A stretch of DNA of 19,654 nt from an uncultured Verrucomicrobiales bacterium (GTDB lineage Bacteria > Verrucomicrobiota > Verrucomicrobiia > Verrucomicrobiales > DEV007), in contig CALAIY010000139.1 in the NCBI GenBank assembly GCA_937922595.1, positions 1 to 19,654 on the forward strand. The letters are read 5' to 3'. This document shows, one piece after another, positions 1-19,654 of this stretch (position 1 is its first letter; each line of letters starts with the position of its first letter). The translations under genes were made by a program, and so were the position numbers. The notes under the pieces are model-generated. The model was not told the DNA's origin and did no database searches. It was given only the letters and a program-made list of their open reading frames with translations.

Positions 1-1
1 T

Positions 2-1279: not shown

Positions 1280-1297
1280 CAATTGGTTGTGCGTTTT

Positions 1298-2422: not shown

Positions 2423-2437
2423 TCGGGGCGGAGGGGG

Positions 2438-3673: not shown

Positions 3674-3862
3674 ATAAATAAATAGTGAGCGAATATGGCT
3701 GGGGAGATCCCAATAGCCATCGAGAAAGAGGAAGTATGGTATCTACGTTTTGCGGCGTACTCTAAAATTTATAATTAAGTGGAATGATTTTAGTCAGAGT
3801 TTTCGCGGTGTCCTTATCGTTACGTGAAATTGATTTCTATTTTAAAGGTAGAAATGGGATGT
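3674..3862. promoter_or_regulatory. AT-rich intergenic spacer. It probably holds the promoter for the NPP-lactonase operon and a transcription end for the upstream NUDIX-exonuclease operon.
   Basis: This ~190-bp gap, clearly AT-richer than its neighbours, is the only sizeable non-coding stretch in the window. It lies immediately upstream of the 2438-3673 minus-strand gene and downstream of the 3863-4462 minus-strand gene. The reverse complement contains a TATAAT-like 'TTATAAA' about 100 nt upstream of the ATG, and there is a weak inverted repeat TTTCTA..TAGAAA near 3835-3860. No strong sigma70 -35/-10 pair is evident. Confidence 0.35.
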
Positions 3863-4462: not shown

Positions 4463-4473
4463 GAGAGAGCGTT

Positions 4474-4956
4474 CTATGGACGAGGATTGATTTCGGCGAC
4501 CATCATTGGGCTGCGGCGGATTTCGCCGGCTTCTCGTGTGAGGATAATTTCCCAGAGCTGGATGGAGCCAGGGGGCATTCGAGATGCGAGGGTATCGACA
4601 AGATGGTGAAGGGTGGCTTCTCCTGCTGGGCGTTTTTGCTCGGGGGTGAGTTTTTCTAGTGAGACGCCTGATGCTTTCTTGATGGCTTTGAGCTTTCCTT
4701 CGTAGACTTTTTTGAGGATGGACGTTCGCACTCCAAATTCGTGGTTTGCGGCGAGGGGGGTGCCTTCGGCATCTGCGACGTAGACGACGAATGGTCTTGG
4801 CGAGAACCCCGAATACATGGGGAATGACGAGAAGGGGAAGAATTCGGCTTGTTTGATTCTGTCGCGGCTGAAAGCGAGCCCGATGAAAAGTGGGTCGCGC
4901 TCTACGACTAGCAGTGAGAGCACGAGGGCGATCAGAAAGATCCAGAATCGTTTCAT
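4474..4956 (-). CDS. Hypothetical membrane-anchored protein with an N-terminal signal/anchor helix
   Basis: 160-aa ORF packed between the NUDIX gene (9 bp upstream) and the exonuclease gene (11 bp downstream) on the same strand. N-terminal hydrophobic segment MKRFWIFLIALVLSLLVV. I recognise no family motif. Confidence 0.55.
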   Translation of the reverse strand: MKRFWIFLIALVLSLLVVERDPLFIGLAFSRDRIKQAEFFPFSSFPMYSGFSPRPFVVYVADAEGTPLAANHEFGVRTSILKKVYEGKLKAIKKASGVSLEKLTPEQKRPAGEATLHHLVDTLASRMPPGSIQLWEIILTREAGEIRRSPMMVAEINPRP

Positions 4957-4965
4957 CTTTAGATC

Positions 4966-5493
4966 CTAGATTGCGGTGATGAATCGCTCAAGTCCACGGC
5001 GGATGGATGCGAACGCGATTTGTGAGAGGTCGATCTCGCGGGGGGGGAGTGTGAGGAGTTCGGTGATTTCATTAGCGTCTCCAATTTCGGGGATCTCGGG
5101 GATGCGGACGTGGAAGAAGATATCTACCGTATGGTAGAGTACGCCGGAGAAGAGGTATTGGTTTGGGAAGGTGAAAAGGGGTTTCAGCTCTGAGGGGGAG
5201 AGTTTTAGGCGTAGTTCTTCGTGGAGCTCGCGGCAGGTGGTCTCTTCTGCTGATTCACCAGGGTCGACGAATCCGCCCGGGAGGTCGAGGGCTCCGGCTC
5301 CGGGATCGAGACCTCTGCGGGTGAGGATGATGTGGTGATTGGGGAGTTCTAGAATTGCGACGGTCGCCGCTACGGGGCTTTTGTAGAAGAGCCATCCGCA
5401 CTCCGGGCAGGAGAATCGGTGGCCATTACGGCTTTCGGTTTTTTTACGACCGCAGCCGCCGCAAAAGCGGAATGGATTTTCCTGGCTAGACAC
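4966..5493 (-). CDS. NUDIX hydrolase with N-terminal zinc ribbon (NudC-like NADH pyrophosphatase / putative RNA deNADding enzyme)
   Basis: Zn ribbon 'CGGCG...CPEC' (C-x2-C...C-x2-C) sits immediately N-terminal to the Nudix fold. The Nudix box 'GFVDPGESAEETTCRELHEELRL' fits G-x5-E-x7-REUxEExGU with G->R at the penultimate position. 175 aa is shorter than E. coli NudC, so the NudC N-terminal domain is absent. Confidence 0.75.
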   Translation of the reverse strand: MSSQENPFRFCGGCGRKKTESRNGHRFSCPECGWLFYKSPVAATVAILELPNHHIILTRRGLDPGAGALDLPGGFVDPGESAEETTCRELHEELRLKLSPSELKPLFTFPNQYLFSGVLYHTVDIFFHVRIPEIPEIGDANEITELLTLPPREIDLSQIAFASIRRGLERFITAI

Positions 5494-5517
5494 GCCTTGT
5501 GATAGGCGACATTTGAG

Positions 5518-7662
5518 ATGAAGAAAACCGCAAAAACTCCTATGAAGATCCTTATCCTACCGCTCATGTCCCTTCTTCCGTTTACCGCATTTGCTCTTGA
5601 GTATCCTGAAGCCGTCCGTGGTGGTGTGGTGGAGACGCTGCATGGGAAAGAGGTCGCGGATCCATATCGCTGGATGGAGGATATCGATTCGGAGGAGGTC
5701 TCAGTATGGGTGAGGGAGCAGGCGCAGCTTGCTGATGATTTTATTAAAGAGGTCTCTGGGCGTGATGCTGTTCGGGATCGTTTGGAGAAGCTTCAGGATT
5801 ACGAGAAAGTGTCTCGCCCGACGAGGCGGGGCGGACGTGTATTCTTTTCGCGGAATTCAGGTCTGCAGAATCAGAGCGTGACTTATTGGCACGAAGAGGG
5901 GGGCGAGCCGAAGGTTCTCCTTGATCCTAATGCGATGTCCGAAGATGGCACGGCGGCGCTTGCAGGGGCGGCGTTGAGTGACGATGGAAAGTATTTTGCT
6001 TATGGGATTTCACAATCGGGTAGCGACTGGAAGGACTGGAGGGTGCGGGAAGTGGCGACGGGGAAGGATCTTCCTGAGACGGTAAAGTGGGTGAAGTTTT
6101 CGGGAGTCTCGTGGGTGCCTGATAATAGTGGTTTTTATTACAGCCGATATGATGCTCCGAAAGAGGGGGAGGAGCTTAGTAGTACGAATTACTTCCAGAA
6201 GGTCTATTTCCATAAACTGAATACTCCTCAATCGGAGGATAAGCTTATTTATGAGCGTAAAGATCAAAAAGAATGGGGTTTCAGAGCGAGCTTCAGTGAG
6301 GACGATCAATGGATGTTGCTTTCGATATGGAAAGGTGCCGGCGGAAATAATGGGCTCTTTTATCGTAAGCACGGCGATGAAAAACTTCCTTTCGTGGAGC
6401 TTTTTAAGGATTTTGATGCGCAATATAGCTTTGTCGGAAATGATGATTCGATATTCTATCTCTGGACGAATCGTGGTGCGCCGAAGGGGAAAGTGGTGGC
6501 AATAGATTTGGAGAAACCGGAGGAGGCGAATTGGCGCACGGTCATTGCTGAGGGAGACGATGTGTTGAAGGGGGCTTCACTCTTTGGTGATTTTGTTGCT
6601 GCTACGTATCTTTCTGATGCGAAATCGCGCGTCGCGATCTACGATCTTAAAGGGGATAGTAAGCTTGTGCGGGATGTGAAATTGCCTGGAGTGGGATCCG
6701 TTCGCGGATTTGGTGGTCGCCGTAGTGATACGGAAACTTATTATACGTTCACGGGGTTTACCGATCCGGGGACGATTTATGAGTATGAGATTGCCACTGG
6801 AGATACGGCTATCTACCGCAGACCGAAGACTGCGTTCGATCCGGAGGATTTCACTACTCGACAGGTGTTTGTGCGGAGTAAGGATGGCACTAAAGTTCCT
6901 GTGTTTCTCACGCACAAGAAGGGGCTGACGATGGATGGGGAGCGCCCGGTCTATCAGTATGGATATGGCGGGTTTGATGTTTCGCTTAGCCCAGGCTTTT
7001 CGGTGGCTAATCTTGGTTGGATGGAGCTAGGTGGCATTTATGCACAGGCTTCGCTTCGTGGGGGTGGTGAGTATGGTGAAGCGTGGCACAGTGCGGGGAA
7101 GCGTTTGAAGAAGCAGAACGTTTTTGATGATTTCATTGCCGTGTCCGAGTGGCTGATTTCCGAGGGGATTACGAATCCGAAGAAGCTTGCGATTGGTGGT
7201 GGGAGCAATGGTGGTTTGCTAGTGGGTGCTTGTCTTGTTCAGCGGCCGGATTTGTTTGGAGCGTGTGTTCCGGCGGTGGGGGTGCTTGATATGCTTCGAT
7301 TCCAGAAGTTTACTATTGGCTGGGCTTGGCAGGATGAGTATGGATTCCCAGAGAAGGACGCTTCTGAGTTTGAAGCTCTTTTAGCTTATTCGCCGTATCA
7401 TAATGTGAAGAAGGGGACGTGCTATCCCCCAACGATGGTTTTCACGGGCGATCATGATGATCGCGTCTTTCCGGCACATAGCTTTAAATTTGCGGCTGAG
7501 TTGCAGCAGGCACAGGGCTGTGAAAATCCGATTCTTCTCCGTGTAGATATCAAAGCGGGGCACGGCGCGGGCAAGCCTACTTCGATGGCGCTTGATGAGG
7601 CTGCTGATCGGTGGGCGTTTATTGCGAAGTCTCTTGGGATGGAGCTTCCTGGAAGTAAGTGA
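5518..7662 (+). CDS. Prolyl oligopeptidase (S9A family serine peptidase), secreted
   Basis: N-terminal propeller-start signature 'YPEAVRGGVVETLHGKEVADPYRWMEDIDSEEV'. Catalytic Ser in 'GGSNGGLLVGA', Asp in 'TGDHDDRV', His in 'KAGHGAG'. Signal peptide present. The start may instead be the second Met at 5542 (MKILILPLMSLLPFTAFA). The divergent gap to the NUDIX gene is only 24-48 bp. Confidence 0.9.
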   Translation: MKKTAKTPMKILILPLMSLLPFTAFALEYPEAVRGGVVETLHGKEVADPYRWMEDIDSEEVSVWVREQAQLADDFIKEVSGRDAVRDRLEKLQDYEKVSRPTRRGGRVFFSRNSGLQNQSVTYWHEEGGEPKVLLDPNAMSEDGTAALAGAALSDDGKYFAYGISQSGSDWKDWRVREVATGKDLPETVKWVKFSGVSWVPDNSGFYYSRYDAPKEGEELSSTNYFQKVYFHKLNTPQSEDKLIYERKDQKEWGFRASFSEDDQWMLLSIWKGAGGNNGLFYRKHGDEKLPFVELFKDFDAQYSFVGNDDSIFYLWTNRGAPKGKVVAIDLEKPEEANWRTVIAEGDDVLKGASLFGDFVAATYLSDAKSRVAIYDLKGDSKLVRDVKLPGVGSVRGFGGRRSDTETYYTFTGFTDPGTIYEYEIATGDTAIYRRPKTAFDPEDFTTRQVFVRSKDGTKVPVFLTHKKGLTMDGERPVYQYGYGGFDVSLSPGFSVANLGWMELGGIYAQASLRGGGEYGEAWHSAGKRLKKQNVFDDFIAVSEWLISEGITNPKKLAIGGGSNGGLLVGACLVQRPDLFGACVPAVGVLDMLRFQKFTIGWAWQDEYGFPEKDASEFEALLAYSPYHNVKKGTCYPPTMVFTGDHDDRVFPAHSFKFAAELQQAQGCENPILLRVDIKAGHGAGKPTSMALDEAADRWAFIAKSLGMELPGSK

Positions 7663-7667
7663 GAGCG

Positions 7668-9041
7668 CTAGACGTTTTTGAGGACTCCCGTTGAGTCGCC
7701 GAAGCTGGTGGCCTTTACTCCGAATTCTTGGAGCATGCGGACGTAGAGATTGGTAAGGGGCTCGCCTTTGCCTAGATTTACGTGGCGTCCGGGAGTGAAT
7801 GCGCCTCCGGCGTGTCCTGCGAGGGTGATGGGGAGGTTTTTATTGGAGTGGCGGTTTCCATCGGAGATGCAGCCTCCGTAGACGACCATGGAATTGTGCA
7901 GGATGCTTTGTCCGTCGATGTCTTCGGTGTTTTCGAGTTGATTGAGGAAATAGGCGTATTGCTCCATGTAGAAGCGATCGATTTTCGCGATTTTTTCTAA
8001 GTTATCCGCTCGGTTTTTGTGGTGGGATAGGTTGTGGTGGCCTTCTGAAACTCCGATGTCCTTGAAGTGGCGGTTGTGCCCTTCGTGCTCGAGCATGAAG
8101 GTGGAGATTCGGGTGGAATCGGTCTTGAAGGCGAGAACCATCATGTCCATGAGGAGTCGGATGTGCTGTGTGTAGCTGGTGGGGCGTCCGTCTGGCGGGG
8201 CTGGGGCTCCGGGGTCTGGGGGGAGGCCGAGGGATTCGATGCGTTCGACTTGGAGTTCGATTTCGCGGACGCCGGTGAGATATTCGTCGATTTTATGTTG
8301 GTCGGCGCGTCCGAGATATTTGGTGAGGGCGCGGGCGTCTTGCTGGATGAAATCGAGCATGGATTTTTTTGAGGCGTAGCGCTGGCCTAGGCTGGATGCG
8401 CGCTCGGTCTTGTTGCCGGTGCCGAAGAGGCGTTCGAAGACGGCGCGGGGGTTTGCCTCTGGCGTCATGGGCTGGGTTTTGGAGCGCCAAGATAGGTTGA
8501 ATTGGTAGGCGCATGAGTAGCCGGAATCGCAGTGGCCGGATTTGCGCACGCCGGATGTGGTGAGCTCGAGTGAGGGGATGCGGGTGAGATCGCGGGCGGC
8601 TTCTGCTGCGATCTGATCTACGGAGATGCCGAGGCGGATGCCTGCGCCGGATGTTTTTTTGGCACGTTGGCCGGTGAGGAAGGTGGCGATTCCTCGGGCG
8701 TGGTGACCGGCACCATCACGGCCTGAGGTGGCATTGAGGTGCTCAAATCCGGAGAATACTTGGAGGTGATTCCGCATCTTTTGGATGGGCTCGAAGGTGG
8801 GGCCGAAGGTGAAGTCGGAGCCGGTGCCGGTGGGTTTCCAATTGGCGACGTTGACGCCATTTGGAATGTAGAGGTAGGCCATGCGCAGTGGCGCGCCGCT
8901 GGGTGTGGTGGCTACGAGTCTTGATCCTGAGGCTTTGGCAATGCTGGGATGGAAGGCTTCGAGGGCTGGAAGCCCCATGGAGACACCGAGGCCGCGAAGG
9001 AAGCTACGGCGGTTGAGCTTGGAGAAGTCTTGTTGAGCCAT
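7668..9041 (-). CDS. DUF1552-family protein (Tat-secreted; partner of DUF1592-type cytochrome-c-like proteins)
   Basis: Twin-arginine signal 'NRRSFLRGLGVSMGLPALEA'. Family hallmark 'HNLSHH' (HxxSHH) near the C-terminus. It lies 44 bp downstream of, and co-oriented with, the DUF1592-type gene, matching the conserved two-gene arrangement known in Planctomycetes/Verrucomicrobia. Confidence 0.75.
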   Translation of the reverse strand: MAQQDFSKLNRRSFLRGLGVSMGLPALEAFHPSIAKASGSRLVATTPSGAPLRMAYLYIPNGVNVANWKPTGTGSDFTFGPTFEPIQKMRNHLQVFSGFEHLNATSGRDGAGHHARGIATFLTGQRAKKTSGAGIRLGISVDQIAAEAARDLTRIPSLELTTSGVRKSGHCDSGYSCAYQFNLSWRSKTQPMTPEANPRAVFERLFGTGNKTERASSLGQRYASKKSMLDFIQQDARALTKYLGRADQHKIDEYLTGVREIELQVERIESLGLPPDPGAPAPPDGRPTSYTQHIRLLMDMMVLAFKTDSTRISTFMLEHEGHNRHFKDIGVSEGHHNLSHHKNRADNLEKIAKIDRFYMEQYAYFLNQLENTEDIDGQSILHNSMVVYGGCISDGNRHSNKNLPITLAGHAGGAFTPGRHVNLGKGEPLTNLYVRMLQEFGVKATSFGDSTGVLKNV

Positions 9042-9085
9042 GGTGGTTTAGTTTAGCATGTTTGTGGATTGGGGGCGAGTGGGGC

Positions 9086-11431
9086 TCAGTTGTTGTCGTT
9101 CCGGCGTTTTTGGAATGGGGCGCTTTCTGTGATGCTGTGGATGAGTTGGCGGAGATTTCCGTTGCTGGATTCTAGGCGGGCTACGAGTTGATCGATGGTG
9201 GTGGCATCGTAGTATTCGATTCCGCGGCCGATGGCGTAGGTGAGGAGTTTCTCGGAGAGGCAGCGGTAGAAGTCGCTGCGGCGTTCGGTGGCGAGGATTT
9301 TTTTAAGCTCGGCGGGACTGGAGAATTTTTCTCCGGTGATGAGTTCGCCGGCGGCGTCGATGGGGGCACCGGCTTCTTTTTCGCGGAATTGGCCGAGTGC
9401 ATTGAAGTTTTCGAGGCCGAGGCCGATGGGATCCATGCGGGCGTGGCAGGAGGCGCATTCGCGCTTCTTGCGGTGGATTTCCATCATTTGGCGCATTGTG
9501 GGTGTGGAGGTGTTGGTTTCGCTGGCGGCTTCTTCGAGTTCCGGGATGTCGGGTGGTGCGGGAGGGGGCGGGGTGCCGAGAAGATTTTCGAGGACGTAGA
9601 GTCCGCGCTTCACTGGTGATGTGCGGGTGGGATTGGAGCTTACGATAAGGTAGGAGCCGTGGGTGAGGACGCCGCCGCGTTCGGGGTGTTTACTAAGATC
9701 GACTTGGCGGAAGGAGTCCCCTGAGATGCCTTTGATTCCGTAGAATTCTGCGAGCCGGGAATTGAGGAATGAATAATCGGCGGAGATGAGCTCTTCGATT
9801 GGGCTTTCGGATTTGAGGAGATGCTCGAAGAGTAATTCCGTCTCGCGCTGCATGTCGTCCCGGAGGCGGACGTCGAATGCGAGTGAGGCTTCGCGCTTGG
9901 AATTGAGTCCAAGGATGGATTGCGGATTGACGGGCGCGGATTGGAGATTGTTTACTTGAAGCCACTGGCCGGTGAAGTCGGATGTCATGCGGGAGGCGCG
10001 TGAATCAGCGAGCATTCTTTCGACCTGGGCGGGGAGGTTTTTGCGGAGCTCTTTGTTGAAGGCGAGGCTTAGTAGCTCGTCATCGGGAATCGAGCGCCAG
10101 AGGAAAAATGAGAGTCGGGTGGCGAGGGCATATTCGTCGATGGGGAGGCTTTTTGCTCCGGGGGAGTTTTGGCCGTGCTGGAGTTCGATTCGGAAAAGGA
10201 ACCGGGGGGAGCAGAGGCAGGTGGCGATGGCTTCTTTGATCCCGTCTTTGAAGTTCTTACCAGGGCGGGCGTCGACTTCTTCGATGATGTGCAGGAGGCG
10301 GTCGATGGTTTGAGTGTCGAGAGGGCGGCGGAATGCGCGGCTGACGAAGCTCTTCATGATTTTTCTGGCGTAGCGCTTTCTTGCGGTGCTGTTTTTGGGG
10401 GCTTCGCCATCGACGAAGATCATGCGGTAGCCTTTTGCGTATTCTCGCTGATTGCCATCTAGGGGGCCTTTGAGGATGAGGCGCTGGATGACGAGTGATT
10501 GTTCTTCTTCTCCTTTTTCGGGTTCATCAAGGGGGGTGAGGGAGAGTTCGAAGGGTGATTTTCCTTTTTTGAGTTTTGTTTTCCCGATGAATTGAATCGT
10601 GTTTTGTGAATCCCAGGCGACGAGTTCTTTGCCGATGACATTGCTTCCGGCGAGGAGTGCAAATTCGGCAGATTGGGTGGTGGCATCGGTGGCACCTCGG
10701 ACGGCGTATTCGAGAATGACTTTGTATTCGCCGGGCCACTGGATTTCTGCGGTAGCTTGAATTTTCTGGGGGGTCTTAAAAGGGAGCCAGCTGCCTGAGA
10801 TTGATTCGTCCGAGGGGGATTTGAAATTGGTGCCATTGATGTCGATTCGGGGGACTTGCGCGGCAGCTCCGGAGGGGAGTGCGCGAGAGACGACAGTTTC
10901 CGCGGCGGCGATGTATTTCTCCATGAGGAGTGGCGAGATGGAGAGGACTTCGCCGATGGTATCGAAACCGTATCCTGTGTCGTCGGGAGGAAATACTTCT
11001 GTGGTATCGAATTCGACGCCGAGCAGGTCGTAGACTGCGTTGCTGTATTCGGTGCGGTTCAGCCGACGGATGATGACTTTACCTGGATCGGGATTTTTGG
11101 GGTCGAGCTTGAAGACGTCGCTCTGGATCCAGGAAAGGAGTGTTTTCCGATCTTTGGGAGTTAGAGGCTCGCCCTCGGATGGGGGCATGATCTGGCTTTG
11201 GACGTTGCGCCAGACAGCTGTCCAATGCTCGATGTCATTGAGGTGAGAGGCGAGGTCTTTGAATGTATCTGCGGAGAATTCGCCTTTGGCAGAGCCTTCG
11301 CCGTGACACTCGTAGCAGGCGTTTTCGAGGATTGGCAGGATTTCCTCGTGATAGCGGTTTTCGGCGGTCGCTGTTGCGAAACTTAGGAGTGTGGCGATGA
11401 ATGCCTTTGGAAGTGCTGCCGGAGAGATCAC
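9086..11431 (-). CDS. Planctomycete-type cytochrome-c-like 'PSD' protein (DUF1587/DUF1592/DUF1595/DUF1588/DUF1585 architecture) with two CxxCH motifs
   Basis: 781 aa with a signal peptide. N-terminal 'CYECHG' and C-terminal 'CASCHARMDPIGLGLENF' are CxxCH heme-binding-type motifs. Overall size and motif placement match the DUF1592-family proteins that pair with DUF1552. Confidence 0.75.
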   Translation of the reverse strand: MISPAALPKAFIATLLSFATATAENRYHEEILPILENACYECHGEGSAKGEFSADTFKDLASHLNDIEHWTAVWRNVQSQIMPPSEGEPLTPKDRKTLLSWIQSDVFKLDPKNPDPGKVIIRRLNRTEYSNAVYDLLGVEFDTTEVFPPDDTGYGFDTIGEVLSISPLLMEKYIAAAETVVSRALPSGAAAQVPRIDINGTNFKSPSDESISGSWLPFKTPQKIQATAEIQWPGEYKVILEYAVRGATDATTQSAEFALLAGSNVIGKELVAWDSQNTIQFIGKTKLKKGKSPFELSLTPLDEPEKGEEEQSLVIQRLILKGPLDGNQREYAKGYRMIFVDGEAPKNSTARKRYARKIMKSFVSRAFRRPLDTQTIDRLLHIIEEVDARPGKNFKDGIKEAIATCLCSPRFLFRIELQHGQNSPGAKSLPIDEYALATRLSFFLWRSIPDDELLSLAFNKELRKNLPAQVERMLADSRASRMTSDFTGQWLQVNNLQSAPVNPQSILGLNSKREASLAFDVRLRDDMQRETELLFEHLLKSESPIEELISADYSFLNSRLAEFYGIKGISGDSFRQVDLSKHPERGGVLTHGSYLIVSSNPTRTSPVKRGLYVLENLLGTPPPPAPPDIPELEEAASETNTSTPTMRQMMEIHRKKRECASCHARMDPIGLGLENFNALGQFREKEAGAPIDAAGELITGEKFSSPAELKKILATERRSDFYRCLSEKLLTYAIGRGIEYYDATTIDQLVARLESSNGNLRQLIHSITESAPFQKRRNDNN

Positions 11432-11461
11432 GAAGCTACCCTCTTAGGAAGCGAGCCGCCG

Positions 11462-11504
11462 TCAAATGTGATTGATCGGGCTTCTGCCCGCACAGATCAT
11501 TTGA
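11462..11504. promoter_or_regulatory. Imperfect palindrome with a central GC hairpin (TCAAATG..TGATC-CGGGC-ttct-GCCCG-..GATCATTTGA) in the promoter region of the DUF1592/DUF1552 operon. It overlaps the stop codon of the HTH gene.
   Basis: Read directly: outer arms TCAAATG (11462-11468) and CATTTGA (11498-11504) are exact reverse complements. The inner CGGGC/GCCCG 5-bp stem (11477-11481, 11486-11490) has a 4-nt loop. The element lies 31-73 bp upstream of the ATG complement at 11431. On the plus strand it is followed by the T-rich 'TTGATTTTTGGGTTTG'. Confidence 0.35.
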
Positions 11505-11973
11505 TTTTTGGGTTTGTCTCTTTCATTGCTTGGAAATCGCCTTCTTCGCAGCAGCGGACGAAGCCTTCGGTGAAGGATTTGAGGTCGTCCCAGACTTCGC
11601 GGATGTCTTCGGATTCATCGTCTGTGATTTCGTTGTCGAGGGCTGCTTGGGTGATGGTGCTGAGGAGGCCGGCGAATTGTTTTACGATTTCGTTCGTTGA
11701 GGGGAGGACTTCGTGGCCTTCTTTGCAGCGACTTTTGGGGTTGCGAAGAAAGTAGCCGCCGGAGCGTTCGCAGAGCCATTTGATGATGAGGGGCTCTTGG
11801 GTGAGCTCGATCATTTTGGCTACTCGGTCGAGTGGGTTTCGGCTGCCGGAGCCCATTTCGGTGTTGGGCTGCGCCCATTTGTAGACTAGTGAAAGTGAGA
11901 CGCCAAGCTCGGCGCTGACCTCCTTCGGGCCACATTTTTTAAACGCTTCTCTAATGACTTCGTGGGATTCCAT
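11497..11973 (-). CDS. Small Cys-rich Cro/CII/YdaS-like helix-turn-helix DNA-binding protein (putative local regulator)
   Basis: 158 aa. The N-terminal HTH 'KEVSAELGVSLSLVYKWAQ' resembles the phage CII / YdaS-type pattern (LGVSxSxVSxW). The C-terminal half is acidic and holds five cysteines including a CC pair ('FVRCCEEGDF'). It is divergently transcribed from the flotillin-AAA cassette across a 104-bp spacer and is co-oriented with the downstream DUF1592/DUF1552 pair. Confidence 0.55.
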   Translation of the reverse strand: MESHEVIREAFKKCGPKEVSAELGVSLSLVYKWAQPNTEMGSGSRNPLDRVAKMIELTQEPLIIKWLCERSGGYFLRNPKSRCKEGHEVLPSTNEIVKQFAGLLSTITQAALDNEITDDESEDIREVWDDLKSFTEGFVRCCEEGDFQAMKETNPKIK

Positions 11974-12077
11974 CGTGGTAATATTGTAGCAGACGTTCGG
12001 TGGTTCGGGGGGATTGTAAAACAGCCTCTTTATTATACTTGGAACCAGATGCCTGTGCCGCTAGCATCGGTCACATT
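11974..12077. promoter_or_regulatory. Divergent promoter/operator region between the HTH regulator gene and the flotillin-AAA cassette
   Basis: 104-bp spacer between divergently oriented start codons, moderately AT-rich ('cctctttattatacttggaacc'). No consensus promoter can be read confidently. Confidence 0.35.
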
Positions 12078-14105
12078 ATGCTGCCAGTTGCTTTTCTTGA
12101 TTTGTTGTTGGGTTCTGTTTGGATCCTTGTCGCTATCGTTGCTTTTGTTCTTTTTGTCGTATTGGCCTGCGTCGCGGCGACGTTCTTCCGAAAAGTTCCT
12201 CAGGGAAAGGCGTTGGTGAAAACTGGTTTTGGAGGAGCTAAGGTCTCTTTCTCAGGGATGTTTGTGGTGCCTTTCGCTCACAAGCCGGAGATGATGGATA
12301 TTTCGGTGAAGAGGATCGAGATCGACAGAACCGGGCAAAATGGCCTGATTTGTAAGGACAATATGCGTGCAGATATCAAGGTGGCATTTTTTGTGCGCGT
12401 GAATCCGACTGAGGCGGATGTGCGGAAGGTCGCGCAATCGATTGGCTGTGCGCGTGCTTCCGATATTAAGGCAATTGAGGCGCTCTTTGATGCGAAATTT
12501 TCGGAGGCGCTCAAGACCGTTGGTAAGCGGTTTGATTTTTCGGAACTTTACGAAGAGCGCGATACCTTCCGCAATGAGATCATTAAACTCATTGGCACTG
12601 ACCTAAACGGTTTCTCCTTGGAGGATGCTGCAATCGATTACCTAGAGCAGACGCCGCTTAGTTCACTTGATCCAGACAATATTCTTGATTCTGAGGGTAT
12701 CAAAAAAATTACGGAGCTCACGGCGACTCAGGCAAAGCTCGCGAATAATATCCAGCGGGATAAAGAAAAGGTTATCAAGCAACAAGACGTGGAAGCTCGC
12801 GAGGCTATCTTGGAGCTTGAGCGTCAGCTCGCGGAGACTGAAGCGAAGCAGGCACGAGAAGTGGCGAACGTGCAGTCACGAGAGGAAGCGGAGACTAAGA
12901 AGGTTGCCGAAGAGAATCGCCAGCGTTCTGAGCAGGCGAGGATCGCCGCAGAAGAAGAGATTCAGATTTCCACGCAGAATCAGGAGCGCCAGGTGATCGT
13001 GGCGCAGCGAAATAAGGAGAAGACGGATGCCGTGGAGCAGGAGCGTGTGGAGCGTGAGCGCCAGCTTGAGCAGATCGAGCGGGAGCGGGTGACGACACTT
13101 AAATCAATTGAAAAGGAGAAGGCTGTAGAGATTCAGAAGAAGGAGATTCAGGACGTTATCAAGGAGCGCGTCGCGGTGGAGAAGACCGTCGTCATTGAGC
13201 AGGAGAAGATCAAAGATACGGAGGCGTTTGCGGGGGCAGATCGTGAGAAGCAGGTTGCGGTGACGCTTGCCGAGAAGGATGCGGAATCGACCTTGATTCG
13301 TAAAGTCCGCGAAGCTGAGGCGGACTTAAAGGCGGCACAATTTGATGCGGATGAAGAGGCATACAAAGTCACGGCTCGCGCCGAGGCTGCGAAGGGAGCT
13401 GCGGATAAGCGTGCTCAGGAAATCGTCATCCTTGCAGAGGCAGAGCAGGAAGCTGCGGAGAAAACGGCATCTGCACGGATGAAGCTTGCCGAGGCGGAGC
13501 GCGCTGAAGCGGCGGCGACTGGACTTGGACAGGCTGAGGTGCTTCGAGCCACTGCGGATGCTGAATCCGAAGGGATTGAGAAGAAGGCGGCAGCGATGAA
13601 GCTCTTTGAGGAAGCGGGGCAGGAGCACGAAGAATTCAAGCTCACTCTTGATAAAGAGAAGGCGGTGGAACTCGCCGAGATCGATGTTCAGCGCCTGGTC
13701 GCTGCTGAGCAATCGAAGGTGGTGGGCGAAGCCCTCAAGACTGCCAAGATTGATATCGTGGGTGGTGAATCTGAGTTCTTTGATCGTATTACCAAAGCTG
13801 TCACTTCCGGTAAGGTAGTGGATAGAATGGTCGATAATAGCGAGACGCTTTCGAACGTGCGCGATACCTTCTTCAATGGTGATCCCGAATACTTTAAGAC
13901 GCAGGTTCGCAGCTGGGCGGATCAATTTGGGATCAGCGCAGAAGAGATGCAGAATCTCACGGTGAGCGCTGTTCTTGGGAAGATGCTAGCGGGCGGGCCG
14001 GATGCCAAACAGGGCTCGGCGATTCGTGGGTTGCTGGCTGCTGCGGAGCGGTTTGGCTTTGCCAATGAAAACGCGGCGGCCGCCCTCAAGCAGCTCGAAA
14101 GCTAA
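12078..14105 (+). CDS. SPFH/Band-7 flotillin-like protein (YqiK/FloT-type) with N-terminal membrane anchor and an extended E/A/K/R-rich coiled coil
   Basis: The ORF is open from 12000, but I place the start at the ATG at 12078 (MLPVAFLDLLLGSVWILVAIVAFVLFVVLACVAA), immediately before the transmembrane helix as in YqiK/flotillins. The SPFH core reads 'KALVKTGFGGAKVSFSGMFVVPFAHKPEMMDISVKRIEI...ADIKVAFFVRVNPTEADVRKVAQSIG'. About 350 aa of heptad-like E/A/K/R-rich sequence follows (flotillin coiled-coil domain). At ~675 aa it is longer than typical bacterial YqiK. Confidence 0.85.
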   Translation: MLPVAFLDLLLGSVWILVAIVAFVLFVVLACVAATFFRKVPQGKALVKTGFGGAKVSFSGMFVVPFAHKPEMMDISVKRIEIDRTGQNGLICKDNMRADIKVAFFVRVNPTEADVRKVAQSIGCARASDIKAIEALFDAKFSEALKTVGKRFDFSELYEERDTFRNEIIKLIGTDLNGFSLEDAAIDYLEQTPLSSLDPDNILDSEGIKKITELTATQAKLANNIQRDKEKVIKQQDVEAREAILELERQLAETEAKQAREVANVQSREEAETKKVAEENRQRSEQARIAAEEEIQISTQNQERQVIVAQRNKEKTDAVEQERVERERQLEQIERERVTTLKSIEKEKAVEIQKKEIQDVIKERVAVEKTVVIEQEKIKDTEAFAGADREKQVAVTLAEKDAESTLIRKVREAEADLKAAQFDADEEAYKVTARAEAAKGAADKRAQEIVILAEAEQEAAEKTASARMKLAEAERAEAAATGLGQAEVLRATADAESEGIEKKAAAMKLFEEAGQEHEEFKLTLDKEKAVELAEIDVQRLVAAEQSKVVGEALKTAKIDIVGGESEFFDRITKAVTSGKVVDRMVDNSETLSNVRDTFFNGDPEYFKTQVRSWADQFGISAEEMQNLTVSAVLGKMLAGGPDAKQGSAIRGLLAAAERFGFANENAAAALKQLES

Positions 14106-14114
14106 GATCCTGCC

Positions 14115-17100
14115 GTGTCCAATGATGCACAGACCGCGATCGAGGGCGGTACCTATGAGGTGATTCGCGCGCGCCTCGCCGCTGCTGGCGAGGCGCTCGA
14201 GCAACGTATCGGCGCGCTCAATTCCGAGCGGCAGTCGATCTTTGGAGCGGTCGATTCTGCTCTTCTTACGACTGAGCGGATTACTACAGAGCATGCGTGC
14301 ACTCCGCGCGACATGACGGCGGTCGGTGGTGGGAAGTTCCTTTTCGGATATAATGTTCAGCTAGGATTGAAATCGACCACTGAGCTGGCGGATGTTTTTT
14401 CCGTCTACCGCTACGATAGTGAGGCAAATACGTTTCTCCCGGATGGGCTCGAAGGAGTGGATCTGGATCGCTTTGCGGAGGACTTTTCCTATCTTTATAA
14501 ATACTACCGTGAGACGAGTTTTGTAAAATTTCTCAAGCGTGGAGCACATCTTTATCTGGCTTTCCGTAGCGGAAAATCGGTCGATGATGTGAAGGCGTTT
14601 AAGTTTCTTCTTCCGGGTGATGGCACGGTCGAGTACTTGGGGAATCGTTTTGATCACGAGTATCTTTTTCCGCCGCAGCAGGAATTCGAATGGAAGCGGG
14701 CGCATCGGGATATGCACCGTGGAGGTGAGCATCCTCATATCTCGATTAATGATCGCGTCTTCGTTGAAACCGTCGGCGGGGATCTTACGGTAAAGGTCGA
14801 GGATAACACGGCTTCAGGCGGCGGAATTTATGCGGAACCGGTCGAGAATGTGGATCAGACGTTGGATGATGCCGAGATTCTTTACGCCGAGGTAGGCAGC
14901 TTGATCTTGCTGAAGATTCGTCCGTATCAGGAGGAGGCGTTTCGCTATCTTGTTTTTTGTGAGAAGACGAATGAGGTCTTTCGGGCGGATGCGATTGCGG
15001 ATTCGTGCGTGCTTCTTCCCGACGATCATGGAATTGTGGTGGCGAATGGATTTGTTCTTCAGACGGGGGAGGCGAAATTTTTCGATAGCGGTCTTGTAGA
15101 TATGCGCTTCGAGCGCCGCGTCGCTTCTTCGAACGGGGAGGATACGTTTTTCGTCTTCTATAATCGCGCTTCGGGAACTTATATTTTGCTCGCCTATAAT
15201 TTAATTGGCCAGAGTATTGAGACGCCGGTTGTATGTAATGGCTATAGTTTGTTTCCAGATGGGCGAATGCTCGTTTTCCGGACGGAAGATCAGCCGCAGA
15301 AGCATCATGCGGTGCAGATTTGGCAGACTCCATTTATGGAGGAGGACGGCTCTTCGTCGATCGAAGGGGCTTCTTATCTTGCTAAGATAGGAAATGCTGA
15401 AGTGGTGCGCTGCATGGCTGAGTGCCGGGAGGTGCTCAAGCTGATCGGGAAGGATGACACTTATGCCGATCTCTATATCGATCTCGTAAAGAAGACGCGA
15501 GATATCGTAGATAGCTATTTTTGGGTGGGGAGCGATGAGGCGCAAAATCTCCGAGAACCCTTGATGGGAGTGAATACGGCTGCTCAGGGGGCAATTGCAG
15601 AATTTGATAAGGTGCAGAAGCTACGCGCTGGGACGGCTGCTGAAACGGCTCGTGTGCAGGAGGTGGTGCGGAAGTTGCTCGCGCGTGTTGAGCACGAAGT
15701 TCCGGATGATATTCAGGGGTTTGTTCATGATCTTGCGGGGCTGCGAGGTGTTCGAGGAGAGGTGGTAGCGCTGCGCGATCGTCGGTATGTGGATCAGGAA
15801 TTGGTCAATACTCTCGAAGAGAGTGTGAAGGTGGCTACGGAAACGGCGTCGAATGGGTGTGTGCAGTTTCTCTTGGAGCCTCAAGCGCTTGATCCTTATC
15901 GCGCGGATGTGGGCGAGCAGGAGAAGGCGGCGGGAAAAATTGCTAAAGTTACCGAAGCGGAGGTGGTGGAGGAGGCGCTTGATGCTGCGGGTGAAGAGCT
16001 GGAGATGCTCATCGATGTGGTGGGTAATCTTAAGATTGAGGACACGACTGAGGCGACTGCGATTACTGAATCGATCTCGGATATTTACGCGGAGCTCAAT
16101 CGGGTGCGTGCGGGGGTGCGGCAGCAGAAGAAGGAGCTTAGCCGCGAGGAAGGTGCTGGGCAGTATCAGGCTCAGGTGCGGCTTCTCGGCCAGGCGGTGG
16201 CGAATTATCTTGAGCTTTGTGATACTCCGGAGCGCTGTGATGATTCACTGACGAAGGTGATGATTCAGCTTGAGGAGCTTGAGGGTAGGTTTGGTGAATT
16301 TGATGAATACGTTGCTGCTTTGGCGGAGAAACGTGAGGAGGTTTATGGGGCGTTTGAGACGCGTAAGCAGCAGCTTCTGGAGGCTCGCAATCGCCGGGCA
16401 GCGACTCTTGAGAAGAGTGCAATGCGTGTCCTTGATGGGATTGTGCGTCGGGTAGAGACGTTTTCGGAGCAGGCTGAGATTAATAGTTACTTCGCGGGCG
16501 ATCTGATGGTGGACAAGGTGCGTGATGTGATTGAAGAGCTTCGCGAGCTAGGGGATCCGGTGAAAGCGGATGGCATTCAGACGCGTCTGAAAACGCTTCG
16601 GGAAGATGCGGTGCGTCAGTTTATTGATCGTAAGGAACTCTACGAGGATGGAGGAAACGTGATCAAATTTGGGGATCATGCGTTTTCCGTAAATACCCGC
16701 GATCTGGAGCTTACTCTTGTGCCTCGCGATGAGGAGATGGCTTACCATCTTACGGGGACGGGTTTTTATGAGGAGGTGGCCGATGCGAAATTTCTCGAGA
16801 CGCGTGAGGTGTGGGATCAGGAATATGTCTCTGAGAGTCGGTGTGTCTACCGCGCTGAGTGGCTCGCGTATCAATGGCTTTTGAGTGCGCGGAATCTTTC
16901 TTTATCGGAATTTATGGCTGCTCGCTATGGCGAAGGCTATGTGAAAGGCGTTCATGATCGTGATGCACAGAAGATTATAGATGCGCTGATTCCAATTCGT
17001 GAGGCGGCAGGGCTCTTGGAATATTCGCCGGAGGTTCGGGCGGGAGCGATGGTTTTCTGGGCTGCTTGGGAGGATGAAGAAATGAAATCGCGGCACGCGG

Positions 17101-19037
17101 CAAGGTTACTCGCTGCGGGTGTCTCGCGGGAGGCGTTTGGCCATACGGGGGGCTTTGAGAGTGCGGTGGCTGAGCTGAGGGAGTATGCGGGAGAGGGCGC
17201 AGAATTTCTGGGTGAAGTGCTTGCTGCGGGAGGGAAGTTTCCAGCTTCTGCGGGGGCGGTGGCAGATTTAGAGGCGTTCCATAATGAACTTAAAAGTAAG
17301 CGGCTGGCGGTGAAGTTTAAGGAATCGATTGAGGCGATGGGGAGCAATGTGGAGGCGCGCTATGCGGTGCTTCTGGATTGGATGGGGAATTCAGTGGAAG
17401 CGGCTGCGGTGGAGCTTTGTGGAGGGCGGCTTGTTCATGATGTTCGCGAGGTGGAGACTGTGGTGGAGCTTACGGAGATGCTTGGTGATCATTCGATGAT
17501 CGAGGGAGGGCGTTACCAGCTCGATTACCATGAGTTCATGGCGCGCCTTGGGGACTATGCGGGGGAGCGGGTTCCGCTTTATGAGCGTTATCATACGTTG
17601 CGTAGTGAATTGGTGGAGGCGAAGCGCGAAGATCTGAGGCTTGCCAGCTTTAAGCCGCATGTGATGAGCGCTTTTGTCCGCAATCGTCTTCTTGATGAAG
17701 TCTATCTTCCGATGATTGGCGCGAACTTGGCGAAGCAGATTGGCGCGGTAGGTGCGGGGACTCGAACGGATCGGATGGGGCTTCTCCTTCTTGTGTCGCC
17801 GCCTGGCTACGGAAAAACGACGTTGATGGAATACGTGGCGAATCGGTTGGGGATCACGTTTGTAAAAATTAATGGGCCTGCGCTGGGGCATGATGTGACG
17901 TCGCTTGATCCGGTGGATGCTCCGAATGCGAGTGCTCGTGAGGAAGTGGAGCGGCTGAACCTATCGCTGGAGATGGGTGATAACGTCATGATCTACGTGG
18001 ATGATATCCAGCATTGTAACCCAGAGTTTCTTCAGAAATTCATTTCGTTGTGTGATGGGCAGCGGAAGATCGAGGGTGTGTGGGATGGGAAGGCTAAGAC
18101 TTATGATTTACGCGGAAAGAAGGTGGCGGTGGTGATGGCGGGAAATCCTTATACGGAGACGGGTGGAAAATTCCAGATTCCCGATATGTTGGCCAACCGT
18201 GCGGATACTTATAATCTGGGGGATATTATCGGAGAAAATAGTGGTGCTTTTGAATCAAGTTATCTGGAGAATTCGCTGACGAGTAATCCTGTGCTTTCAA
18301 AGCTTGCTGGTAAAGGCCAGGGGGATGTGCGGGCGATTTTGAAGATGGCAGCGGCTGCCGATGGCGCGGTGTCGGATGAGCTTGAAGGGAATTTTACGGC
18401 GGAGGAGGTGTCTGAGTTTATTTCGGTGGCACGGAAGCTTCTTCGTGTTCGTGATACGATCCTGCGGGTGAATCTGGAATATATTCGCTCGGCGGCGATG
18501 GAAGATAGCTACCGCACTGAGCCTGCTTTTAAGCTTCAGGGGAGCTACCGGAATATGAATCGGATTGCGGAGAAGGTGCTTCCGGTGATGACTGATGATG
18601 AGGTGGAGCGTCTCATTCATGATCACTACCGGGGGGAGAGCCAGACTCTTACGACGGGCGCTGAAGCGAATTTACTTAAGTTCTTCGAACTCGAAGGGGA
18701 GATGGCGTCCGAGCAGGCTGAGCGTTGGACGCAAATTAAGACGGAGTTTAATAAGCAGAAGCTTCTGGGAGGTGCTGGAGAGGATGATCCGGTGTCGCGT
18801 GTGGTGGCGCAAATGATGCAGTTTCAAGATGGGCTCAGAGATATTGCTGGCAAGATTGGTGGCTCGGAGCTGGCAGATTCTACTGTGGCGAAGCTGGAGA
18901 AGGTCATCGCTGGTCTGCGGGCGGTTCCGGTGGAGGTGGAGATCAAAGTGGTGCCGGTTGAGCCTGGTGAGACTTCGAGGAGCGCTCCGGGATTGCCGGT
19001 GGACGTGGAGTCTCGGACGACGCAGGGGATGGAGTGA
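14115..19037 (+). CDS. Giant (1640-aa) uncharacterised protein with a C-proximal MoxR/AAA_5-type AAA+ ATPase module; co-operonic partner of the flotillin gene
   Basis: GTG start 9 bp after the flotillin stop, and a single uninterrupted 4.9-kb ORF. Walker A 'SPPGYGKTT' (~aa 1229). Walker B plus the MoxR-type post-Walker-B helix 'MIYVDDIQHCNPEFLQKFISLCDGQRKIEGV' (cf. hhhhDEINRAxPxxQxALLEAMEE). Sensor 1 / Arg finger 'VVMAGNPYTETGGKFQIPDMLANRAD' (cf. MoxR 'ATQNPxE..G.Y.LPEA.LDRF'). The N-terminal ~1200 aa are a mixed beta-rich (aa ~60-410) then long alpha-helical region with no motif I can assign. There is no P-loop N-terminally and no vWA/MIDAS (DxSxS) motif anywhere. Confidence 0.8.
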   Translation: MSNDAQTAIEGGTYEVIRARLAAAGEALEQRIGALNSERQSIFGAVDSALLTTERITTEHACTPRDMTAVGGGKFLFGYNVQLGLKSTTELADVFSVYRYDSEANTFLPDGLEGVDLDRFAEDFSYLYKYYRETSFVKFLKRGAHLYLAFRSGKSVDDVKAFKFLLPGDGTVEYLGNRFDHEYLFPPQQEFEWKRAHRDMHRGGEHPHISINDRVFVETVGGDLTVKVEDNTASGGGIYAEPVENVDQTLDDAEILYAEVGSLILLKIRPYQEEAFRYLVFCEKTNEVFRADAIADSCVLLPDDHGIVVANGFVLQTGEAKFFDSGLVDMRFERRVASSNGEDTFFVFYNRASGTYILLAYNLIGQSIETPVVCNGYSLFPDGRMLVFRTEDQPQKHHAVQIWQTPFMEEDGSSSIEGASYLAKIGNAEVVRCMAECREVLKLIGKDDTYADLYIDLVKKTRDIVDSYFWVGSDEAQNLREPLMGVNTAAQGAIAEFDKVQKLRAGTAAETARVQEVVRKLLARVEHEVPDDIQGFVHDLAGLRGVRGEVVALRDRRYVDQELVNTLEESVKVATETASNGCVQFLLEPQALDPYRADVGEQEKAAGKIAKVTEAEVVEEALDAAGEELEMLIDVVGNLKIEDTTEATAITESISDIYAELNRVRAGVRQQKKELSREEGAGQYQAQVRLLGQAVANYLELCDTPERCDDSLTKVMIQLEELEGRFGEFDEYVAALAEKREEVYGAFETRKQQLLEARNRRAATLEKSAMRVLDGIVRRVETFSEQAEINSYFAGDLMVDKVRDVIEELRELGDPVKADGIQTRLKTLREDAVRQFIDRKELYEDGGNVIKFGDHAFSVNTRDLELTLVPRDEEMAYHLTGTGFYEEVADAKFLETREVWDQEYVSESRCVYRAEWLAYQWLLSARNLSLSEFMAARYGEGYVKGVHDRDAQKIIDALIPIREAAGLLEYSPEVRAGAMVFWAAWEDEEMKSRHAARLLAAGVSREAFGHTGGFESAVAELREYAGEGAEFLGEVLAAGGKFPASAGAVADLEAFHNELKSKRLAVKFKESIEAMGSNVEARYAVLLDWMGNSVEAAAVELCGGRLVHDVREVETVVELTEMLGDHSMIEGGRYQLDYHEFMARLGDYAGERVPLYERYHTLRSELVEAKREDLRLASFKPHVMSAFVRNRLLDEVYLPMIGANLAKQIGAVGAGTRTDRMGLLLLVSPPGYGKTTLMEYVANRLGITFVKINGPALGHDVTSLDPVDAPNASAREEVERLNLSLEMGDNVMIYVDDIQHCNPEFLQKFISLCDGQRKIEGVWDGKAKTYDLRGKKVAVVMAGNPYTETGGKFQIPDMLANRADTYNLGDIIGENSGAFESSYLENSLTSNPVLSKLAGKGQGDVRAILKMAAAADGAVSDELEGNFTAEEVSEFISVARKLLRVRDTILRVNLEYIRSAAMEDSYRTEPAFKLQGSYRNMNRIAEKVLPVMTDDEVERLIHDHYRGESQTLTTGAEANLLKFFELEGEMASEQAERWTQIKTEFNKQKLLGGAGEDDPVSRVVAQMMQFQDGLRDIAGKIGGSELADSTVAKLEKVIAGLRAVPVEVEIKVVPVEPGETSRSAPGLPVDVESRTTQGME

Positions 19038-19124
19038 AGTAGGAGGGGGCGCTAGATCTGGGGAGTTGCCGAAGGTTTCGGTAGAGGTAATGTCGCGGGT
19101 AGAATCCAACCCATACTGATTATC

Positions 19125-19654
19125 ATGTTTTTGCAAAAACTGCTCCCCGTTGCCCTGCTTGCCATTCCGTCATTGGCGGTGTCTCAATCGATCGTGTTCA
19201 CCAATGCCATCATCGCTGATCAGGTGGCGGGGGCAAATGACGTCGCTGCGGGTGATTTCGATGGAGATGGACTGCTTGATGTTGTGGTGCTTGAATCGAA
19301 TGCTGACAATGTTTTGTGGCTTCGGAATCCAGGTGGAGATTTGAGCGGAGAATGGGTGGAGACGAGGATTAATTCAGCTTTTGGAAATGGTGCAAGTGTC
19401 GGTGTTGGGGATTTTGATGATGATGGTGATCTGGACGTTGCTGCCGCGTCGCCGGAAGATAATGATATCGCGTGGTTTGAAAATCCTGCTGGGACGGCTG
19501 CCGATTGGGAGGAACATATCCTTGACCCGGCTGCGATGGCAGTGAGTGACATTGAGGTTGTTGATATCGATGGAGATGGTGATTTGGACATCGTTGCCAC
19601 AGCGACTGGAGATAATGATGTGCTCCTTTTTCGGAATCCGGGGAGGGAGTTGGT
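19125..19654 (+). CDS. Secreted FG-GAP/VCBS-repeat protein (integrin-alpha-like beta-propeller repeats); 3' end lies beyond the window
   Basis: It is absent from the ORF track because no stop codon is reached, so I translated the frame by hand. ATG at 19125 gives 'MFLQKLLPVALLAIPSLAVSQS' (signal peptide), then repeated 'GDFDGDGLLDVVV', 'GDFDDDGDLDVAAA', 'VDIDGDGDLDIVAT' Ca-binding FG-GAP/VCBS units separated by 'NPGG/NPAG' segments. The minus-strand ORF 19220-19600 is its antisense shadow. Confidence 0.75.
   Translation, partial: MFLQKLLPVALLAIPSLAVSQSIVFTNAIIADQVAGANDVAAGDFDGDGLLDVVVLESNADNVLWLRNPGGDLSGEWVETRINSAFGNGASVGVGDFDDDGDLDVAAASPEDNDIAWFENPAGTAADWEEHILDPAAMAVSDIEVVDIDGDGDLDIVATATGDNDVLLFRNPGREL

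Follow-up and report, generated by a model that had tools for sequence, protein, structure and literature searches.

SPFH/flotillin proteins form large closed membrane assemblies, and we know of no description of how these assemblies are opened, turned over or regulated. In the HflK/C-FtsH system, an SPFH-family membrane scaffold is coupled, both genetically and functionally, to an AAA+ ATPase; MoxR-type ATPases, for their part, are chaperone-like remodellers of other proteins. We analyzed here a stretch of 19,654 nucleotides (nt) from an uncultured Verrucomicrobiales bacterium (contig CALAIY010000139.1, forward strand; "the window" hereafter, meaning this whole stretch), which carries what reads as a two-gene operon: a gene for a YqiK-type flotillin predicted to be anchored in the inner membrane, followed by a gene for a soluble AAA+ ATPase of 182 kDa (14115..19037, + strand). 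The architecture of this ATPase is already catalogued and has been noted in the literature, and the value of the present work is mainly one of re-annotation and context.

The closest described system was reported in 2024 from comparative genomics (PMC11237479; mSystems 2024; 9(6): e00847-23) as operons associating PspA with a band-7/flotillin protein, YqiJ/YuaF and a "beta-propeller + coiled-coil + AAA+ ATPase" protein, the latter noted "Betapropeller+Coiled-coil+AAA-ATPase" in the supplement. The operon of the window belongs to the same type, with the same protein architectures and gene order, flotillin and propeller/coiled-coil/AAA+ genes being neighbours in both; the full operons described there also include CesT/Tir, PspA and YqiJ genes, whereas the window has none of the three. 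The paper also mentions "abbreviated operons" devoid of PspA, which are more widely distributed and may work with a PspA encoded elsewhere, and proposes a chaperone-like assembly of sub-membrane or membrane-linked complexes. The ATPase is called there a "novel AAA+", and in the parts of the paper searched, neither a MoxR affinity nor a Walker B variant is mentioned.

The partner gene, 12078..14105 (+ strand), encodes a protein of 675 amino acids (aa) made of a hydrophobic anchor (aa ~1-42, followed by RK), which is its sole hydrophobic stretch, an SPFH domain, a long E/A/K-rich coiled coil and a family-specific C-terminal domain. When this protein was used alone as a query, Pfam, NCBIfam and PDB sequence searches returned nothing significant; its identity came only from an hhalign comparison of a 13-member family alignment (A1) with E. 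coli YqiK (probability 99.94%, E 2.9e-37, 393 columns, 31% identity). The protein also shares 28% identity (E 2e-50) with its counterpart at locus L044, which does carry Pfam Band_7. These profile and pairwise matches identify the upstream gene as a YqiK-type flotillin gene, and its linkage to the ATPase gene is, in the loci sampled, near-obligatory. Indeed, only 9 nt separate the flotillin stop codon from the GTG start of the ATPase gene, and in 48/50 loci (window counted), the ATPase gene is directly preceded, on the same strand, by a flotillin gene, a conserved neighbour that the initial annotation, made from the letters of the window alone, had overlooked. The sample spans Verrucomicrobiota, Bacteroidota, Fibrobacterota, Deinococcota, Actinomycetota and Gammaproteobacteria, and the pairing is kept in L040, where the first 700 aa of the ATPase are 26% identical, and the partner 29% identical, to the proteins of the window.

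The ATPase gene has 1,640 codons, and its product (1,640 aa, predicted mass 182 kDa) is acidic, with a pI (isoelectric point) of 4.8; a sequence scan predicted no transmembrane segment, no hydrophobic segment and no signal peptide. More than 4,823 homologues came out of a search through 5.8 billion proteins. Among these, the best 120 are all ~1,630-1,800 aa long with an identical domain set; the closest one other than the protein itself is 64% identical over 99% of its length. Because so many homologues share the same length and architecture, the open reading frame (ORF) is, by comparison, a genuine gene rather than one that reads open by chance. With aa 1-700 as a query, an exhaustive HMMER search run on clusters at 50% identity collected 284 of them at E <= 1e-30 and, with the threshold relaxed to E <= 1e-3, 906. 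The family is spread over at least six bacterial phyla, with Actinacidiphila, Vibrio, Streptomyces, Deinococcus, Hymenobacter, Nonomuraea, Pseudomonas (plasmid pQBR103), Proteus, Photobacterium and Halomonas among its carriers; the nearest relatives of the window ATPase are found in Verrucomicrobiota, in Akkermansiaceae and Verrucomicrobiaceae.

The ~1200 aa that precede the AAA+ module had been presented as unknown sequence, which is not the case: this region holds DUF3686, labelled "ATPase involved in DNA repair" in Pfam (aa 28-469, E 2.3e-178, 593.7 bits for a cutoff of 25, full profile covered), and DUF7902 (aa 590-674, nt 15882-16136, + strand, E 7e-26, 90.6 bits for a cutoff of 26). With both domains, a single C-terminal AAA+ module and a length falling in the ~1,600-1,900 aa class, the protein is a member of the already catalogued DUF3686-DUF7902-AAA family, to which NCBI gives the name "DNA repair ATPase". 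Its homologues appear in databases as "DNA repair ATPase", "MoxR-like ATPase" or hypothetical proteins; nothing found here supports the first of these names, yet many family records carry it.

The strings on which the AAA assignment was originally based are all present: GYGKTT (aa 1231-1236), DDIQHCNPEFLQKFISLCD (aa 1296-1314), AGNPYTE (aa 1342-1348) and IPDMLANRAD (aa 1355-1364). Conservation across the family is highest in this motif block. Walker A, SPPGYGKT (aa 1228-1235; 17796..17819, + strand), is the sole P-loop of the protein, the only second GK[ST] tripeptide being located at aa 153, in the beta domain and outside any P-loop context; PPGYGKT is invariant in 68/68 full-length cluster representatives, at about residue 1230-1350 and down to 26% identity in the N-terminal part. 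Walker B takes the variant form DDIQH (aa 1296-1300; 18000..18014, + strand), and in an alignment of 33 diverse members (A2, in which protein numbering equals A2 position + 1100), D196, D197, Q199 and H200 are invariant, with an Asp standing where the catalytic Glu is usual (DD, not DE); this replacement suggests, by sequence, a slow, switch-like hydrolysis. A predicted pre-sensor-1 beta-hairpin, RKIEGVWDGKAKTYDLRG (aa 1317-1334; 18063..18116, + strand), comes directly before strand beta4 in a template-free AlphaFold model of aa 1101-1640 (model 2; strands 218-223 and 226-231). It is followed by the block AGNPYTE...IPDMLANRAD (aa 1342-1364; 18138..18206, + strand), where the model makes N1344 a sensor-1 candidate and R1362 an Arg-finger candidate, and where GNPYT, F1353 and PDML.NR are invariant in A2, as are SPPGYGKT and DD.QH.

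The two Walker motifs and the sensor-1 and Arg-finger candidates are carried by an alpha/beta core (aa 1224-1366; 17784..18212, + strand) followed by a helical lid; Pfam and the fold agree in placing the module in AAA+, and it is with certainty an AAA+ ATPase and not an ABC or RecA-like P-loop. Its position was described as the C-terminal end of the protein: it does lie on the C-terminal side, but not at the very end, as ~275 aa of lid, helical extension and disordered tail follow.

Which AAA+ clade the module belongs to is a more delicate matter. Pfam matches in this part of the protein are PF00004, AAA_22, AAA_5 and RuvB_N. AAA_5 scores 26-28 bits for a cutoff of 22 in 33/33 members, from Walker A through sensor 1 (124/139 profile positions), and the folds closest to the modelled module are those of the MoxR-type CbbQ and NorQ. 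The invariant "GNPYTE..G..F.IPDML.NR" and the predicted pre-sensor-1 hairpin also resemble what we take to be the MoxR pattern. PF00004 scores slightly higher than AAA_5 (33-37 bits), with an alignment reaching only up to Walker B, and the Pfam search gave no AAA_3 match in the module. Against all PDB sequences, the family profile found only classical AAA proteins (Rix7, NVL, p97) and RuvB, around Walker A only; the hhalign probability was 88% for FtsH (35 columns), 23% for YehL and 16% for RavA. No helix-2 insert is evident, aa 1254-1271 being modelled as a loop with no beta-hairpin. We consider it fairly probable that the module belongs to the MoxR/AAA_5 group. The AAA+ half of the initial AAA_5/MoxR-type assignment is thus secure and its MoxR half only probable, the profile check proposed for the clade having put AAA_5 above cutoff without singling out MoxR. 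From the MoxR proteins themselves (CbbQ, NorQ, RavA, YehL), which are about 270-500 aa long and work with a partner carrying a vWA domain and its metal ion-dependent adhesion site (MIDAS), the window ATPase differs by its 1,640 aa, by the absence of such a partner, by its DD Walker B, by a Walker-A region that is classical AAA- or RuvB-like in sequence, by its weak hhalign match to YehL and RavA, and by the helix-2 insert that is not evident in the model.

The rest of the protein was read from the same model 2 (33 sequences; predicted local distance difference test, pLDDT, of 83; predicted template modelling score, pTM, of 0.69) and from a model 1 of aa 1-1130 (58-sequence alignment, mean pLDDT 85.5), both of which cover the ATPase alone. 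After a predicted long N-terminal helix (aa 11-43; 14145..14243, + strand) comes a beta-propeller-like domain of about 26 strands (aa 49-404; 14259..15326, + strand; pLDDT about 90), which forms the core of DUF3686 and contains the quoted beta-block strings FLFGYNVQLG (aa 75-84), YLAFRSG (aa 147-153), IVVANGFVLQTG (aa 307-318) and FFVFYNRASGTYILLAYN (aa 345-362). Foldseek matched this domain to WD40 and other propellers of the PDB with E from 1e-5 to 2e-3, namely the DCAF1 WDR (target TM-score 0.40-0.42), Sec12, EED, Ycf48 and the prolyl-oligopeptidase propeller; beta-propeller is likewise the label it receives in PMC11237479. A protocoatomer-like reading was rejected, the Foldseek matches to Elp1, IFT-A, Nup and clathrin being weak (TM-scores 0.07-0.15).

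Then follow about 650-700 aa that are, in the model, mostly helical and acidic, so that the succession of a beta-rich block and a helical acidic stretch had been correctly foreseen from the letters. An array of long helices (aa 421-838; 15375..16628, + strand), which includes DUF7902, resembles three-helix bundles of the spectrin-repeat type, and the middle region of the protein indeed matches spectrin-like bundles in model comparison. Past a low-confidence linker, a small beta-strand insert (aa 850-887; 16662..16775, + strand) carries G853 and F857, invariant or nearly so in alignment A3, and a second helical region (aa 913-1102; 16851..17420, + strand) carries the conserved G945, H947, D948 and D950 (A3 as well). 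Beyond the AAA+ core, the helical lid and C-terminal helical extension (aa 1368-1603; 18216..18923, + strand) contain an invariant block in A2, R1467..P..F..QGSYR.M (aa 1467-1481), and the chain ends in a tail predicted to be disordered (aa 1604-1640; 18924..19034, + strand; pLDDT <50), poorly conserved and differing in both length and sequence across the family.

In other genomes, further genes accompany the pair. In about 35 loci, a gene for a ~210-aa membrane protein precedes the flotillin gene; this protein features an acidic DxD run and, at its C-terminus, a beta domain; in L037, it matches Pfam YqiJ_N (25.1 bits for a cutoff of 23). YqiJ/YuaF are NfeD-type partners of flotillins according to a study of SPFH evolution (PMC2636767), which counts HflK/C among the SPFH subfamilies, reports SPFH2 genes without NfeD in 17 genomes and makes no mention of an ATPase partner. 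Every other locus with an adjacent flotillin and enough upstream sequence has this YqiJ-like gene; it is absent from the window, where comparison with L037:4815-5501 and ~35 other loci showed no remnant of it in 11974-12077. PspA recurs too: on a Hymenobacter plasmid, the order is Tir-like chaperone, PspA, DUF1449 (YqiJ), flotillin-like protein and ATPase; on pQBR103, PspA and yjf-type polyamine genes stand just upstream of the module; L040, too, has PspA/IM30 adjacent or nearby. Among the window ORFs, neither PspA nor CesT/Tir was found. TelA, found nearby in three loci (L043, L044, L046), was not retained as a core component, three of about 20 diverse loci being too few.

We propose, giving this reading about even chances, that the ATPase is an ATP-driven remodeller of a flotillin/PspA membrane scaffold. 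The flotillin would be held in the inner membrane by its N-terminal anchor, with its SPFH and coiled-coil parts probably facing the cytoplasm. Since AAA+ proteins generally form rings, the ATPase would most likely form one as well, probably a hexamer of about 1.1 MDa, whose propellers and helical arms would dock on the oligomeric flotillin scaffold, possibly via the family-specific C-terminal domain of the flotillin. ATP binding and hydrolysis by the ring would then drive the assembly, opening or disassembly of this scaffold; in the fuller operons, the associated PspA/ESCRT-III-like polymer would be remodelled likewise, the whole being part of an envelope/membrane-stress or membrane-maintenance response. 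A flotillin endowed with its own AAA+ motor in a widespread operon would offer a direct experimental handle on the turnover of SPFH assemblies, and the operon bears on the role of bacterial flotillins under envelope stress.

Two systems may serve as guides. As in HflK/C-FtsH, an SPFH scaffold is paired with an AAA+ ATPase, a pairing known here from gene linkage; FtsH, however, belongs to the classical AAA proteases, is membrane-anchored and is organised by HflK/C proteins that face the periplasm, whereas the window ATPase is predicted to be soluble, lacks a protease domain and has a probably MoxR-like fold, next to an SPFH2-type flotillin that probably faces the cytoplasm. Vps4-ESCRT-III, and bacterial PspA/Vipp1 with AAA+ ATPases, offer the likeness of an AAA+ ring recycling a membrane-bound polymer, and in several genomes, PspA/IM30 genes do lie near the module. 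Vps4 is small, carries an MIT domain and belongs to the classical AAA proteins, whereas the window ATPase has no MIT domain and probably belongs to another AAA lineage, and the constant partner of its family is a flotillin, not an ESCRT-III protein. In its boldest form, which we find possible but rather doubtful, the proposal would make this ATPase the first dedicated ATP-driven flotillin/SPFH remodeller, that is, a vWA-less ring of MoxR lineage with propeller-tipped spectrin-like arms gripping the flotillin cage, which it would open, close or recycle, in the way that ESCRT-III is recycled by Vps4. If this were true, the minimal two-gene form would show that a flotillin and an ATPase suffice.

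One has to keep in mind several points that weigh against a flotillin remodeller. Our literature searches found no experimental work on any member of the ATPase family. The DD Walker B could mean weak hydrolysis or none. The placement in the MoxR clade, probable as it is, draws on an AlphaFold model and on a Pfam score that is modest, and profile comparisons prefer the Walker-A region of classical AAA proteins and RuvB. The operon of the window is a minimal flotillin + ATPase pair, missing both the YqiJ-like protein and PspA. At locus L045, no flotillin adjoins the ATPase; in L009, the second exception to the pairing, only 824 nt of upstream sequence is available, filled by an IS200/RAYT-like ORF. 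Lastly, gene linkage does not tell a flotillin that is the client from a flotillin that is the platform.

This last distinction defines the main rival explanation, which we hold to be rather unlikely: the flotillin would be a platform only, recruiting or enclosing the ATPase as HflK/C cages hold FtsH, and the propeller-guided ATPase would act on other membrane or sub-membrane proteins, for instance by extracting or unfolding damaged proteins or by assembling complexes. The identity of the flotillin and its linkage in 48/50 loci fit such a platform equally well; propellers are typical client or adaptor binders, and a chaperone-like role is that of MoxR-type ATPases, of which CbbQ and NorQ give the top fold matches. 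The general role in putting together membrane-linked complexes favoured in PMC11237479 goes in the same direction. Besides YqiJ and an occasional PspA or TelA, however, no third conserved gene that could be a client was found; nor does the protein or the operon include a protease or any other effector domain.

The remodelling of a flotillin scaffold has also to be set against an improbable alternative, an anti-phage or conflict system in which infection or membrane damage would be sensed and answered at the membrane level, possibly by abortion. Members of the family are found on megaplasmids and chromids (13 records), PspA itself is a "phage shock" protein, and several distant loci have suggestive neighbours: a Bil-like ubiquitin-type set (Multi_ubiq/E2, JAB-ThiF, BubE) with a deaminase in L041 (14938-17399), RNA ligase, HD/kinase, HipA and TelA genes in L043 (2575-5232 and 13191-16303), and TelA in L044 and in the Vibrio locus L046, there with a ClpX-like ATPase (15502-17823). 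Defence-gene neighbours are nevertheless confined to a minority of loci, and the association of distant members with conflict or stress genes is too sporadic to call. PADLOC returned no meaningful match, its hits to LmuB and IetA (E about 1e-4) being limited to the coiled coil and the P-loop, and 50,697 phage records contained no match; no nuclease or toxin effector is conserved, and the neighbours in the window are housekeeping genes (peptidase S9, DUF1552, PSD-domain proteins, NUDIX, LeuA-like).

A third possibility keeps the module within a usual MoxR system, with its vWA gene unlinked. The CbbQ/NorQ-like fold, the AAA_5 score above the Pfam threshold and the name "MoxR-like ATPase" given to some homologues would agree with it, and a window of 19.6 kb leaves room for a vWA gene elsewhere in the genome. 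Yet in E. coli, taken as a control, the MoxR genes ravA and yehL adjoin the vWA genes viaA and yehP, and the absence of a vWA partner stated in the initial annotation withstood every comparison: no vWA domain occurs among the window ORFs, in the downstream genes of the closest syntenic relatives (L037 and L038), in the genes listed for the flanks (8-10 kb on each side) of five diverse members or in the annotation of three annotated plasmid contexts, and no vWA family was hit by more than one of the 150 neighbour ORFs taken from 20 diverse loci. The gene immediately downstream in the window is no exception, and neither of the two outcomes that the initial annotation had named as refuting its claim, a non-AAA P-loop family or a vWA gene just downstream, came up. 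The context downstream of the ATPase is not conserved among relatives, and the partner that is conserved is the flotillin. We thus regard an unlinked vWA partner as very improbable, and MoxR-like AAA+ modules would apparently be able to operate without one. That no DxSxS occurs, as had been said, is literally wrong; the DGSSS at aa 411-415 was rejected as a MIDAS motif and is immaterial, since it sits in a low-confidence linker and in no vWA fold. The comparison drawn with midasin and dynein finds no basis beyond the shared AAA_5 fold: these proteins have six concatenated AAA modules per chain, with a C-terminal MIDAS in midasin, whereas the window ATPase was rightly described as a single AAA unit in a ~180-kDa protein and has neither MIDAS nor vWA.

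The database name, which would make the protein an SMC/Rad50-like coiled-coil ATPase acting on DNA, can draw on its Pfam/NCBI wording, on the weak LmuB (SMC-like) match over the helical region and on a LexA-family regulator upstream of the PspA-YqiJ-flotillin-ATPase run of the Hymenobacter plasmid, but is hardly credible for a protein with an AAA+ module instead of an ABC/SMC head, a single P-loop near its C-terminus, helices of spectrin-repeat type rather than the antiparallel coiled coil of SMC proteins, no Pfam match to a DNA-binding or nuclease domain, membrane proteins as conserved partners and no paper found in literature searches to support the name.

Some observations concern the surroundings of the pair. 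In Verrucomicrobiota, insertions recur at one hot spot, the junction of the flotillin and ATPase genes. Gaps of 370-1170 nt separate the two genes in related loci (for instance L004:9475-10001, L041:7410-7784, L019:9119-10001, L021:9162-10001) and are occupied by an IS200/RAYT-like ORF, by a "WHSRGYLPHFD"-type ORF or by a PDDEXK_3 ("GxxExxY") gene, ~125-140 aa in length and sometimes degraded; the spacer of the window, with its 9 nt, has none of these inserts. On the other side of the flotillin gene, a divergent helix-turn-helix gene (11497..11973, - strand; 158 aa, Cro/CII-like; Pfam Phage_CP76 24.4 bits, just below the cutoff of 26) abuts it in place of YqiJ. It is kept in the same position in L037, L034, L039 and L038, and may be a local regulator of the operon. 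A promoter/terminator scan was uninformative, with fewer sites than in shuffled controls. Downstream of the ATPase, the gene 19125-19652 (+ strand), which runs off the window end, codes for a signal peptide and FG-GAP/VCBS-type repeats (FG-GAP_3, E 1.6e-26) and is unrelated to the operon.

The window as a whole has an extreme strand-wide GC skew of +0.29 over 1-19654, with a large excess of G over C on the + strand that does not depend on which way the genes run, and at third codon positions, the skew ranges from +0.35 to +0.79 in 12/12 genes. Values are 0.14-0.18 in related Akkermansiaceae loci (L002, L005), -0.17 in L041 and near 0 in most other loci; the skew points to a mutational asymmetry, of the replication strands or of another kind, that is unusually strong. 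Finally, 7668-11431 (- strand) holds a DUF1552 (HXXSHH) gene and a PSCyt/PSD-domain gene (DUF1585, 1587, 1588, 1592, 1595 and a cytochrome c-like domain), a pair typical of the Planctomycetes-Verrucomicrobia-Chlamydiae (PVC) group and consistent with a Verrucomicrobiota/Planctomycetota origin; in L038, too, a DUF1552 gene lies close to the operon.

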